This document shows, in pieces, positions 1,455-20,256 of a stretch of DNA of 32,000 bases. The translations under genes and the position numbers were made by a program. The first letter of the stretch is position 1; every line of letters begins with the position of its first letter. A model generated the notes under the pieces. That model had not been told where the DNA came from and ran no database searches. It was given only the letters and a program-made list of their open reading frames with translations. Source of the stretch: Methanocaldococcus jannaschii DSM 2661 (GTDB taxonomy: Archaea > AGJL01 > Methanococci > Methanococcales > Methanocaldococcaceae); contig NC_000909.1 in the NCBI RefSeq assembly GCF_000091665.1, positions 1,247,459 to 1,279,458 on the forward strand, written 5' to 3'.

Positions 1455-2636
1455 TTATAACACCTTCTTTATAGCATTCCAAACTAAAAAACTCTGAGGC
1501 TTTAAAATCCCTTCTATTGGATTTAAGAATAAGATATTTCTTTTAATTAAAAACTCTCTAATTTTTTTAGGTATTTTTATATCCTCTATTTCATAATCTT
1601 CTTTAAATAATTTTAATGCATCAACAACTTTTTTATAAAGTTCCTCATCTTCTTCTTTAACATCCTCTAAGAAATATTTTAACTTTTGAGTAGCATCCTT
1701 AAGCATAAAATCTAAAATATCGTTTAAATTTTCATATCTCAACTTATCAATAACTTTTATTATTAAAACTGGTTTTCCCCCTACATAATTATAGATTAAC
1801 TCTTTATCTTCATTAGTTAAGCTCATGTTATTCTCTTTAGCCAAAAAATCCATAAATTTTAAGGCAGTTTCCTTATCAAAATCATCCACTAAGATATATT
1901 CACCTCGCATAGAGGCAAAGCCTCTATTGCTATACTCCAGAGCGGGGTTGCCAAAGGCAACCCCACTTTCTATCTGGGGGAGTATACCAATAGAGGGGGC
2001 GTAGCCCCCTCTATGGTCATCCACCAAAATATAATCAACTCTATCCTCCAACATTGCTTCATTATAAACTCTCTCTATGAATAAGCTATCTGAACTTAGG
2101 CAGAAAACGTGGCATAGGTGTTTATGCTTGGTTAGAGATACAAAGTAATTAAATAGCTCATAGATTAAGAATCCATTAATTTTCATGTCTCCAATCTTTT
2201 GAAGTTCATCAATAATAATTATTGGTTGCTTTCCTTCTCTTTTAATGTCCATTAAAACATTGGTTATATATCTAAAAACATTTTTAGTTGTTTTCTTTTT
2301 AAAAATCTCGTTTAGAGTATTTTTTGGTATGGGAATGCCATACAATGAAGGTAAGTCATTGATAATTGCCTTAATTACTTCTATAGGGCTTTTATCTCCT
2401 TCATATTCCTCAAACAAAACTTCAATGAAATCATCGTATTTAGAGATAAAAATCTCCCTCAAATCAAAATAAAACACAATGTATTTATTTTTATCTAATC
2501 TATTGTTAATAATCTCATTTATTAAGGCAGTTTTTCCACTATTTATGGAGCCATAGATGAAATAAATCAAATTTGGTTCTCCTTCTATAATAGATAAGAT
2601 TTTATGAATTTCTTTCTCTCTATTGAAGAATTTCAT
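1455..2636 (-). CDS. Archaeal AAA-type ATPase (Arch_ATPase-like) carrying an in-frame repeat insertion
   Basis: Walker A GSINSGKT and Walker B IIIIDELQ. The ATG at 2636 is preceded by GGTGAT, so I prefer it to the track start at 2657. Confidence 0.75.
1905..2016. mobile_element. MITE-like palindromic element inserted in frame within the ATPase CDS
   Basis: Three hairpins: 1909-1927, 1944-1964 and 1990-2014. The two arms are inverted copies of each other (cctctattgCtatactcc vs cctctattgGtatactcc). Flanked by a 24-nt direct duplication, 1881-1904 vs 2016-2039, that encodes YILVDD twice. Confidence 0.75.
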
Positions 2637-9857: not shown

Positions 9858-10823
9858 ATGACTATAGCATTTGGACCAGTTCCATCAAGGAGGTTAGGGA
9901 AGAGTCTAGGGATAAATAGCATTCCATGTAAGTTTTGTAGTTATGATTGTGTATATTGCCAAGTTGGAAGAACCATAAACAAAACTATAGAGAGGAGAGA
10001 GTTTTATAGTCCAGAAGATATTTTTAAGTCAGTAGAGGAGAGGATAGGTAAGCTAAATAATGAGAAAATTGACTACCTCACTTTTGTTGCAGATGGAGAG
10101 CCAACATTAGATATAAATTTATCAAAAGAAGTTGAAATGCTTAGAGATTTTGACATTCCAATAGCAATAATTACAAACTCTTCATTAATTTGGAGGGAAG
10201 ATGTTAGAAATGACATATTAAACTTTGATTTAGTATCTTTTAAGGTTGATTCTGTTGATGAAAAAATTTGGAGAGAAATAAATAGACCTCATAAAGATTT
10301 GGTGTTAGATAAAATCTTAGAAGGAATGATAGCTTTTAGAGATAACTATAAAGGAGAGTTGATAACTGAAACGATGATTTTAGGAAGTATAAAATATACA
10401 GAGGAATCTATAATCAAAACAGCAGAATTTTTAAAAGAATTAAATCCAAATAAATGCTATTTAAATACTCCAATAAGGCCACCATCTGAAAAATATATAA
10501 AACCTCCTAAAATAGAAGTTATAACTAAAATATTAGCCATATTTAATGAAATTATTGGTAAAAATAAAATTAAACTCTTAGGGAAATTTGAAGGAAATGA
10601 ATTTATATTCTCTGAAAATGTTGAAGAGGATATATTGGCTATAACTTCCGTTCATCCAATGAGAGAGGAAGTTATTAAAGAATTGTTAAATAAATCAAAT
10701 ATTAGCTTTGATATTATAAATAAAATGGTAAATGAGGGAAAACTAATAAAATTAGAATATGATGGAAAAGTATTCTATATGAAAAATATTAAAAGTAGGG
10801 ATAAAAATGTATCTAACCCATAG
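9858..10823 (+). CDS. Radical SAM protein
   Basis: CSYDCVYCQ (CxxxCxxC) near the N-terminus. The last codon and the stop codon lie inside the repeat at 10818. Confidence 0.8.
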   Translation: MTIAFGPVPSRRLGKSLGINSIPCKFCSYDCVYCQVGRTINKTIERREFYSPEDIFKSVEERIGKLNNEKIDYLTFVADGEPTLDINLSKEVEMLRDFDIPIAIITNSSLIWREDVRNDILNFDLVSFKVDSVDEKIWREINRPHKDLVLDKILEGMIAFRDNYKGELITETMILGSIKYTEESIIKTAEFLKELNPNKCYLNTPIRPPSEKYIKPPKIEVITKILAIFNEIIGKNKIKLLGKFEGNEFIFSENVEEDILAITSVHPMREEVIKELLNKSNISFDIINKMVNEGKLIKLEYDGKVFYMKNIKSRDKNVSNP

Positions 10824-10914
10824 GGCTTCGCCCTATTGGGATACCCAGAGCGGGGCTTCACTACATTCAGCCCTACTGTAATCTATTTTTAATCAGATTT
10901 TTAGTAAAAATTTG
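10818..10914. mobile_element. MITE-like structured repeat (half-element) flanked by a perfect 21-bp direct duplication
   Basis: agggataaaaatgtatctaac occurs at 10797-10817 and again at 10915-10935. Hairpin at 10820-10836. Shares the core CATAG-stem-CTATTGGGATACCCAGAGCGGGG with the copies at 1905 and 28235. Confidence 0.8.
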
Positions 10915-10924
10915 AGGGATAAAA

Positions 10925-12136
10925 ATGTATCTAACTAAAGAAGAAGAGAAAATATTAGATGGAGAATATGGAGAGGTTTTAAGAAGATGTATGAATTTAT
11001 TAGTTTCTTTGGGAGATATTTATGGAGCTGATAAGCTAATCCCTATAAGCTCAGCTCAAATTTCTGGAGTTTCATACAAAACTATTAAAGATATTGGTTT
11101 AGAGTTTTTGGAAGATTTTGCTAAAGAAGATGTTAAAGTTAAGGTCTATGCCACTTTAAACCCAGCTGGAATGGATTTAGATATATGGAGAGAGCTTGGC
11201 ATTGATGAGAAGTTTGCCAAAAAGCAGTTGAGAATTATTGAAGCATTTAAAAAGATGGAAGTTGAGATAAGTTGCACTTGCACGCCCTATTTAACTGGAA
11301 ACCTTCCAAGATTCGGAGAGCATATAAGTTGGGCCGAAAGCTCAGCTGTGAGCTTTGCAAACTCTGTCTTAGGAGCTAAGACAAATAGAGAAGGTGGGCC
11401 ATCAGCATTAGCAGCTGCAATTATTGGAAAAACACCATATTATGGATATCACTTAGATGAAAATAGAAAGACAACACATATCATTGAGTTAGATGGACAA
11501 TTAATCTCTAACTTTAAATATGGAGAGAGTTTTTATGGAGCTTTAGGTTACTTAGTTGGGAAGATTGTTAAGAATGGCATTCCATATTTTGAAAATCTAT
11601 ATAAATTAAATCCAAATAACGATAATTTAAAATCCTTGGGAGCTGCAATGGCTGCAAGTGGTGGTATCGCCTTATATCACGCAAAAAACTTGACAGCTGA
11701 ATGCAGAGTTAAAGAAGTTGTTAATGATAAAATTGAAAAGATATCTATTGGAGTTGAGGAGATAAAGGAAGCTTATGAAAAATTAAATACAACAAATGAA
11801 GAGCCAGATTTAATTTGTATTGGTTGCCCTCACTGCAGTTTAATGGAAATTAAAAAAATTGCTGAACTTTTAAAAAATAAAAAATTGAATGCTGATTTAT
11901 GGGTTTGCTGCTCTCTTCATATTAAAGCAATAGCAGATAGAATGGGATATACAAAGATTATTGAAAAAGCTGGTGGAAAGGTAGTTAAAGACACCTGTAT
12001 GGTTGTTTCTCCAATTGAGGATTTAGGTTATAAAAGAGTTGCAACAAACTCTGGAAAAGCTGCTGTTTATCTACCAAGCTTTTGTAAGAGTGAAGTAATT
12101 TTTGGAGATATTGAGGAATTGTTAAAAGGGAGATAA
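10925..12136 (+). CDS. Aconitase-X (DUF521) family catalytic subunit; possibly phosphomevalonate dehydratase large subunit
   Basis: About 400 aa. The N-terminus MYLTKEEEKILDGEYGE and the SSAQISG/SWAESSAV segments are as I remember for AcnX-type proteins. The functional assignment is by recollection only. Confidence 0.6.
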   Translation: MYLTKEEEKILDGEYGEVLRRCMNLLVSLGDIYGADKLIPISSAQISGVSYKTIKDIGLEFLEDFAKEDVKVKVYATLNPAGMDLDIWRELGIDEKFAKKQLRIIEAFKKMEVEISCTCTPYLTGNLPRFGEHISWAESSAVSFANSVLGAKTNREGGPSALAAAIIGKTPYYGYHLDENRKTTHIIELDGQLISNFKYGESFYGALGYLVGKIVKNGIPYFENLYKLNPNNDNLKSLGAAMAASGGIALYHAKNLTAECRVKEVVNDKIEKISIGVEEIKEAYEKLNTTNEEPDLICIGCPHCSLMEIKKIAELLKNKKLNADLWVCCSLHIKAIADRMGYTKIIEKAGGKVVKDTCMVVSPIEDLGYKRVATNSGKAAVYLPSFCKSEVIFGDIEELLKGR

Positions 12137-19587: not shown

Positions 19588-20256
19588 GTTAAAATCAGAC
19601 CTCTTGGAGGATGGAAACTTATATTCACTTGTATAATTGTTTTCTATTGCATTCAAAGTTAAAATCAGACCTCTTGGAGGATGGAAACCGCATTCTTTTT
19701 GTATTTTTAACTCTTCTAAAATAGTTAAAATCAGACCTCTTGGAGGATGGAAACAAAGCTGAAATTACTGAGGAAGATACTGAGAAAGTTATAATTAAAA
19801 TAGTTAAAATCAGACCTCTTGGAGGATGGAAACGAAAAAGAGGGTAAATTAACAATCTATAATATTGAGGTTAAAATCAGACCTCTTGGAGGATGGAAAC
19901 GCATTCCATTACCTATATATATACCGTTTATATAGCCGTTTCCATTGTTAAAATCAGACCTCTTGGAGGATGGAAACTTTAATTCTTCAATGCTATTAAC
20001 AGTTTCATCCCTAGTTAAAATCAGACCTCTTGGAGGATGGAAACTGAGTATGGCCTATTGGGATGACAACATACTTAATTAGCCCATTTGTTAAAATCAG
20101 ACCTCTTGGAGGATGGAAATTAAACTCTTTTTTCTTATCTTCTGACAATTGTAAATGTTAAAATCAGACCTCTTGGAGGATGGAAATTATGTGGTTTTAG
20201 AGGATGGGAAGATTGTAGAAAAGGAGTTAAAATCAGACCTCTTGGAGGATGAAAAC
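19588..20256 (+). CRISPR. CRISPR array: 10 copies of the 31-nt repeat GTTAAAATCAGACCTCTTGGAGGATGGAAAC with 9 spacers
   Basis: Repeat starts are at 19588, 19658, 19724, 19803, 19870, 19947, 20014, 20090, 20157 and 20226. Spacer lengths are 39, 35, 48, 36, 46, 36, 45, 36 and 38 nt. Repeats 8-9 end in T instead of C and repeat 10 has a G-to-A change. The ATGGAAAC 3' end fits a + strand crRNA 5' handle. Confidence 0.97.

Follow-up and report, generated by a model that had tools for sequence, protein, structure and literature searches.

In the window (the whole 32,000-nucleotide stretch of Methanocaldococcus jannaschii DNA that was analysed, 1247459-1279458 of the chromosome contig C1), an open reading frame of 400 codons is located on the minus strand at 1455-2657 and adjoins bioA, as does its orthologue; the span from stop to stop is 415 codons. 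Pfam assigned ATPase_2 (PF01637, E = 6e-73, two matched stretches) to this ORF and the MJ1010-like domain (PF21690) to its C-terminal part and, judged by these domains, the host gene is that of an archaeal AAA+ ATPase. The database entry of 393 aa begins at the second ATG (window 2636), upstream of which are found GGTGAT and AT-rich TATA-like sequences, and this ATG is probably the translation start. Among solved structures, the C-terminal domains of MJECL15 and MJ1010 are the closest; by fold, the nearest neighbours are two archaeal AAA+ ATPases, PABY2304 and SSO1545, and then ORC/Cdc6 proteins. At least 12 paralogues of the ATPase are present in the M. jannaschii genome. No mention of the host gene was found in the literature searched for it.

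The ORF is uninterrupted across a GC-rich palindromic element. The preliminary description of this DNA had placed here a palindrome of about 111 bp with three perfect hairpins and inverted arms, and all these parts were found again with somewhat refined limits. The element measures 108-111 nt, starting at 1905 or 1908 and ending at 2015; the best limits of the element proper are 1908-2015, and its two ends form a terminal inverted repeat of 8 nt without mismatch, CATAGAGG...CCTCTATG (1908-1915 / 2008-2015). One terminal hairpin (1990-2014) has an 11-bp perfect stem (ATAGAGGGGGC / GCCCCCTCTAT; arms 1990-2000/2004-2014), the central hairpin (1941-1967) a 9-bp perfect stem (GGGGTTGCC / GGCAACCCC; arms 1944-1952/1956-1964) that extends to 12 nt at 92%, and the other terminal hairpin (1909-1927) an 8-bp perfect stem (ATAGAGGC / GCCTCTAT; arms 1909-1916/1920-1927), each closed by a 3-nt loop. 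Long-range inverted arms of 18 nt, 94% complementary, extend over 1921-1996 (1921-1938 and 1979-1996), indicating that the entire element is a single large palindrome centred on the central hairpin.

The GC content is 54% in the element, as compared with 26.6% in the rest of the ORF and 31% in the chromosome. The RNA of the segment 1881-2039 (159 nt) is predicted to fold at -71.9 kcal/mol (z = -5.75), none of 200 shuffled sequences being equally stable. In predicted folding at 85 C, the three hairpins persist at -16.4 kcal/mol while all other 162-nt stretches of the mRNA give 0.0. Two of the six frames of the element are stop-free, and the host gene reads one of them; as the element is a palindrome, its reverse orientation encodes a similar peptide. 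The Rfam search gave no family for the element, the matches within the window being CRISPR repeats elsewhere. Two of the hairpins weakly fit the bacterial-type terminator pattern, which was not taken as meaningful in an archaeon.

On both sides of the element a direct repeat is located, as had also been described. The copies at 1881-1904 and 2016-2039 are identical at 19 of 24 positions and can be extended to 1881-1907 and 2016-2042 (21/27), with a spacing of 135 nt. This period is equal to 45 codons, so that the frame is preserved, without a stop, as initially proposed. The copy upstream in gene sense (2016-2042, minus strand) encodes (R)VDYILVDD and is the closest to the ancestral sequence; the downstream copy (1881-1907, minus strand) encodes (R)GEYILVDD, and the protein continues from GEYILVDD into FDKETALKF. 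Between the two YILVDD copies there are three differences, all synonymous (ATT/ATC, TTG/TTA, GAC/GAT), in agreement with the first reading of the sequence, and the two remaining differences between the 24-nt copies replace V by G and D by E. As only about 3.3 of the 18 sites are synonymous, three synonymous-only differences have a probability of p ~0.006 if changes were random.

The AlphaFold2 model of the protein (70 homologues) has a mean pLDDT of 83 and a pTM of 0.80, with a confident AAA+ core. In this model, the upstream YILVDD copy forms the strand at residues 200-204 (beta5), the insert residues 208-247 show pLDDT <50 and almost no secondary structure, and the helix of the lid begins at residue 255, just past the downstream copy, the last residues of which join this conserved helix. 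This places the insert after the final strand of the P-loop core and ahead of the helical lid. Along the chain it follows Walker B (IIIIDELQ), where it had been located from the beginning, and the strand after sensor 1. As modelled, the duplication is a spare copy of a beta strand for the ATPase fold, and the insert probably adds a 45-residue floppy loop to the ATPase. Structure prediction had been proposed as a way of finding out whether the insert forms a surface loop, and the outcome is divided: the insert is indeed predicted to be disordered, but the site is the conserved beta5-lid junction and not an obvious loop. Because this site is a nearly invariant motif, tolerance of the insert is not self-evident.

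The empty site in relatives and selection on the host gene

After a six-frame search of 17 Methanocaldococcus genomes, every relative was found to match residues 1-214 and residues 251-400 separately, the stretch between residues 214 and 251 being covered by no relative. In each relative, the two matching DNA pieces share about 20 nt, indicating that the single YILVDD codons of the relatives align with both copies in M. jannaschii. In all eight relatives inspected, one YILVDD is located directly before FDKE and the insert is absent. The syntenic orthologue in a related genome (G011, contig 15), which is linked to bioA and shows 87-88% DNA identity, is also without the insert, and the flanking repeat is proven to be a target duplication because this orthologue has a single copy. 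In a search of 5.8 billion proteins, the best 119 homologues all carry a single YILVDD, and none has the 45-residue insert; YILVDDFD is nearly invariant across 71 aligned sequences. The preliminary description had called for an alignment with orthologues lacking the insert, and had named distant orthologues with the same 45 residues but no repeat signature as the case against it; every relative aligned in the first manner, and the second situation was absent from the best 119 homologues.

Two other arrangements were considered and rejected. A chimera of two paralogues joined at the element does not fit, since both halves are nearest to the same bioA-linked orthologue. A copy with 88% identity in another related genome (G012) is not an orthologous insert, being intergenic and upstream of a CRISPR array.

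Compared with the syntenic orthologue, the ATPase gene shows dN = 0.035 and dS = 0.97, giving dN/dS = 0.036. When four outgroups were included, five amino-acid changes fell on this lineage and four on that of the orthologue. Given this low ratio and no excess of amino-acid changes in the lineage, the ATPase gene looks alive, and the comparison of sequences argues for continued function, with exchange of segments between paralogues as a caveat. The signal of purifying selection is an average over the entire period after the species separated, and most of it could be older than the insertion.

Directly 3' of the insert there is a tract (1780-1889, minus strand) about 95% identical to the paralogue C1:68016-69095, whereas the flanks of this tract are only 65-79% identical to the same paralogue and the tract itself is 86% identical to the orthologue. 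From this pattern of identity, the tract probably arose by gene conversion. The ATPase paralogues look mosaic along their whole length, which suggests that gene conversion is frequent. Since the 5' edge of the tract falls within the downstream duplicate copy, the divergence between the duplicate copies may come partly from conversion rather than from age, and the adjoining tract makes duplicate divergence an unreliable measure of the age of the insertion. Frequent conversion between paralogues could also keep a weakly functional copy of the ATPase looking healthy.

The repeat family and known systems

The second copy of the element was identified at C1:1368225-1368315, with 97% identity over 92 nt and its own 33-nt duplicates identical at 31 of 33 positions, and partial matches to the modules occur elsewhere in the genome. 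When the central module, formed by the central hairpin, was used for an iterated nhmmer profile, 17 loci were detected in the genome, and the ATPase copy was the only one within a long open frame; searching with the 53-residue peptide in six frames gave no other copy in an open frame >101 aa. Modules of the element are present in 14 of the 17 Methanocaldococcus genomes. By sequence similarity, the element is a member of a genus-wide, modular family of hairpin repeats.

Direct repeats scoring >=16 flank 11 of the 17 family loci, as compared with 1.6% of 1000 random positions. The flank duplications range from 14 to 48 nt across 13 loci, several being perfect at 16-22 nt, and at most family sites one of the duplicate copies has a CATAGRGG-type hairpin no more than a few bases away. 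Long flank duplications are thus a family trait, and the one of 24-27 nt in the ATPase gene represents the normal signature.

Some individual insertions have features of their own. An intergenic family copy within the window (10797-10935) carries a perfect 21-nt direct duplication (10797-10817 / 10915-10935). About 3.2 kb before the window, a bioB-like ORF (C1:1243510-1244607) contains an in-frame, GC-rich double-hairpin module (...ERGTLIGAESPNLMDVGYPNRGFPLWV...), which is related to the ATPase element, NRGF being read in the same frame in both. In 8 of 13 family insertions, duplication and insert together have a period that is a multiple of 3, against about 1/3 expected (binomial p ~0.035); the excess may be caused by the many insertions that overlap gene ends. 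Three insertions (C1:97164-97443, 873509-873709 and 1150317-1150500) duplicate tRNA-3'-end-like sequence, such as TGGTGCCGAGGGAGGGAT and CGGCCGGCGCACCA, and tRNA gene ends may be a recurrent target of the family.

With respect to mobilisation, the genome contains two DDE_Tnp_1 and four TnpB-like ORFs. The 99.9%-complete genome gave no match to the Y1 HUH transposase (PF01797), and a RAYT-type REP was rejected for this reason; no match to reverse transcriptase (PF00078) was found in the genome, and the same applies to a retroposed element moving by target-primed reverse transcription. These searches thus identified no mobilising enzyme for the family.

The preliminary description compared the element with the MJRE elements, palindromic repeats with coding potential that were reported for the M. 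jannaschii genome by Suyama, Lathe and Bork (FEBS Lett 2005). Papers that cite this work present it as a description of repeats in archaea whose ORFs are fused into genes for proteins. In such papers, the M. jannaschii repeats also appear as in-frame selfish coding elements comparable with the RPEs of Rickettsia and the repeats of Wolbachia, and in-frame coding palindromic repeats are stated typically to sit in non-structured segments. MJRE elements and the ATPase element have in common the organism and a small, palindromic, multi-copy, mostly intergenic nature: the latter is a multi-copy palindrome of about 100 nt, of which the coding copies (ATPase and bioB) keep the ORF. The element matches the MJRE type as a class, and the multi-copy hairpin family of 17 loci together with the empty site in the orthologue upholds the first reading. 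MJRE elements reportedly number 141 in three groups, and three copies of MJRE2 are said to be located in coding regions with the frame intact. The ATPase and bioB copies are presumably among these three.

As summarised in PMC2996958, both the RPEs (Ogata et al., Science 2000) and the Wolbachia repeats (Ogata et al. 2005) are in-frame palindromes of 100-150 nt within conserved genes. Orthologues lack them; they lengthen the protein by a few tens of residues, in segments that are non-structured or at the surface, and they are seen as selfish DNA that the host protein tolerates. The ATPase element is likewise in frame in a conserved gene and absent from the orthologues and, by analogy, it works like an RPE. 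The likeness is one of description, and the RPEs belong to another domain of life. In contrast to the RPEs, the ATPase element is accompanied by a target duplication of 24-27 nt that doubles a core beta strand, and consists of GC-rich hairpins in the 31% GC genome of a hyperthermophile.

Two further groups of elements are similar in part. The MITEs are also small, multi-copy and of non-coding origin, with target duplications and terminal inverted repeats (8 nt and perfect here), and are occasionally fused into ORFs. The target duplications of MITEs are short, of a fixed length of 2-10 bp that is set by the parent transposase. The element is not an ordinary IS-derived MITE because its target duplication is long and variable (21-27 nt here; 14-48 nt family-wide). 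The GC clusters of yeast mitochondria are mobile palindromes of about 30-50 bp, optional among strains and flanked by short target duplications, and one optional cluster is in frame in var1. GC-rich hairpins in an AT-rich genome, sometimes in frame within a gene, are common to both systems, but the yeast clusters are much shorter, organellar and subject to other target rules, so that they serve as an analogy only.

The kind of event described here has already been published, for coding palindromic repeats in M. jannaschii and for RPEs in Rickettsia; the present case adds to this only its structural setting, the signs of continued selection, and target duplications that are long and variable.

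Explanations of the in-frame insertion

We are confident that an MJRE-type repeat was inserted in frame and that the ATPase with 45 extra residues stays under purifying selection, the insert being probably translated and looped out. Under this explanation, a non-autonomous GC-rich hairpin repeat of the modular Methanocaldococcus family inserted into the ATPase gene after the split from the lineage that carries the bioA-linked orthologue, and duplicated a target of about 21-27 nt, that is, the codons of the beta5 strand YILVDD. The ORF survived because the element and the duplication together make 135 nt and because the gene-sense frame of the element is without a stop. The product would then have gained 45 residues, predicted to be an unstructured loop that joins the P-loop core to the helical lid; the strand would come from one of the YILVDD copies, with the other leading into the lid helix, and the gene has remained under purifying selection.

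It is unlikely, in our judgement, that the insertion inactivated the ATPase and that the gene is a young, undecayed pseudogene among more than ten paralogues, its frame being open by chance. Such an open frame would not be improbable with two of the six element frames open, the loss of one ATPase would be cheap in a genome with at least 12 paralogues, and the nearly invariant motif where core and lid meet is interrupted by the insert. A decaying gene, however, is hard to reconcile with an ORF of about 1.2 kb that has neither a stop nor a frameshift although the duplicates already differ at 5 of 24 positions, with a dN/dS of 0.036 and balanced amino-acid changes (5 vs 4), or with intact start signals. 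Both YILVDD copies have also kept their amino acids (p ~0.006). Conversion from paralogues could account for part of all these signs.

Co-option of the insert, in which the loop or the thermostable hairpins have a function (for example, as a new surface for interactions, a binding site for proteins or a pause site in translation) and are kept by selection, we regard as very unlikely. It would account for the 97% identity between the element and its second copy despite about 20% divergence of the flanking duplicates, but this identity is equally explained if the 1368225 copy is a recent daughter, as its duplicates (31/33) would allow. Likewise, the conservation of amino acids in both YILVDD copies is in agreement with co-option, but gene conversion can account for the duplicate pattern. 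The predicted stability of the hairpins at 85 C, and the conservation in five proteins of several species of a different 45-nt hairpin insert in a paralogue, also speak for a function; the present insert, however, was found in one gene of one genome only, and its peptide is predicted to be disordered. The least probable explanation, to which we give hardly any credence, is the removal of the element after transcription or translation, as a bulge-helix-bulge intron or in an intein-like manner, to give a mature protein without the 45 residues. No segment of the mRNA other than the element is predicted to be folded at 85 C, the RNA of the element is strongly structured, and the direct repeats would permit exact restoration of the ancestral sequence. 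With the frame kept, however, removal is unnecessary; a loose scan for bulge-helix-bulge motifs gave 336 matches at chance level and no convincing junction motif, and the intergenic copies of the element have no exons to join. Inteins begin with Cys, Ser or Thr, end with His-Asn and exceed 100 aa. The insert, of 37-45 aa, begins with HRGG and ends with SMR/GEY, and an intein is ruled out by its size and terminal residues.

As an in-frame insertion into a gene that is apparently alive, the locus shows cleanly how, in nature, selfish DNA has lengthened a conserved AAA+ ATPase by 45 residues in a single step. The empty site preserved in the syntenic orthologue makes it a test case for the insertion tolerance of the junction between P-loop core and lid, and the insert is at the same time a test case for ribosomes and polymerases that meet hairpins folded at 85 C. 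It is conceivable, though we would not expect it, that the family moves by a non-ordinary transposition with long and variable duplications (14-48 nt), and that the duplication buffers the damage by supplying a second beta5 strand, which would allow completion of the fold from either side of the insert; if so, hyperthermophiles would have in these elements a separate route by which structured protein cores acquire loops. A possible coupling of insertion to break repair is hinted at by the gene-conversion tract next to the insert.

Other hairpin repeats in the window and in ATPase paralogues

The ATPase_2 paralogue at C1:939957-941087 carries a different in-frame insert of 45 nt near 940868 on the minus strand, which consists of two small hairpins and encodes EAKLRATKTFGFRLI. 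Near-identical inserts of the EAKLRATKTFGFRLI type, differing by 1-2 residues, are present in five database proteins, including those of Methanocaldococcus sp. 10A and sp. FS406-22. Shared by these five proteins, the insert at C1:940868 represents an older in-frame hairpin insertion that persisted.

In the window, hairpin repeats are nested at 1193-1374, after the bioA stop. The nest is enclosed by two diverged copies of about 54 nt from the 3' end of bioA (1139-1192 vs 1375-1428), the region as a whole extending over 1139-1428. It contains a palindromic element of 102 nt (1229-1330), which interrupts a unit found undivided at other loci. Units of 35-39 nt (1194-1228 and 1331-1369) recur <400 nt from the 3' ends of 5 of 13 ATPase_2 paralogues. 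With only 37 matches to the units genome-wide, this number of paralogue ends is far above chance, and the ATPase genes and the repeats seem to travel, or to be targeted, together. Further along the window, a CRISPR array is located on the minus strand at 19588-20256, with 10 repeats matching Rfam CRISPR-DR39.
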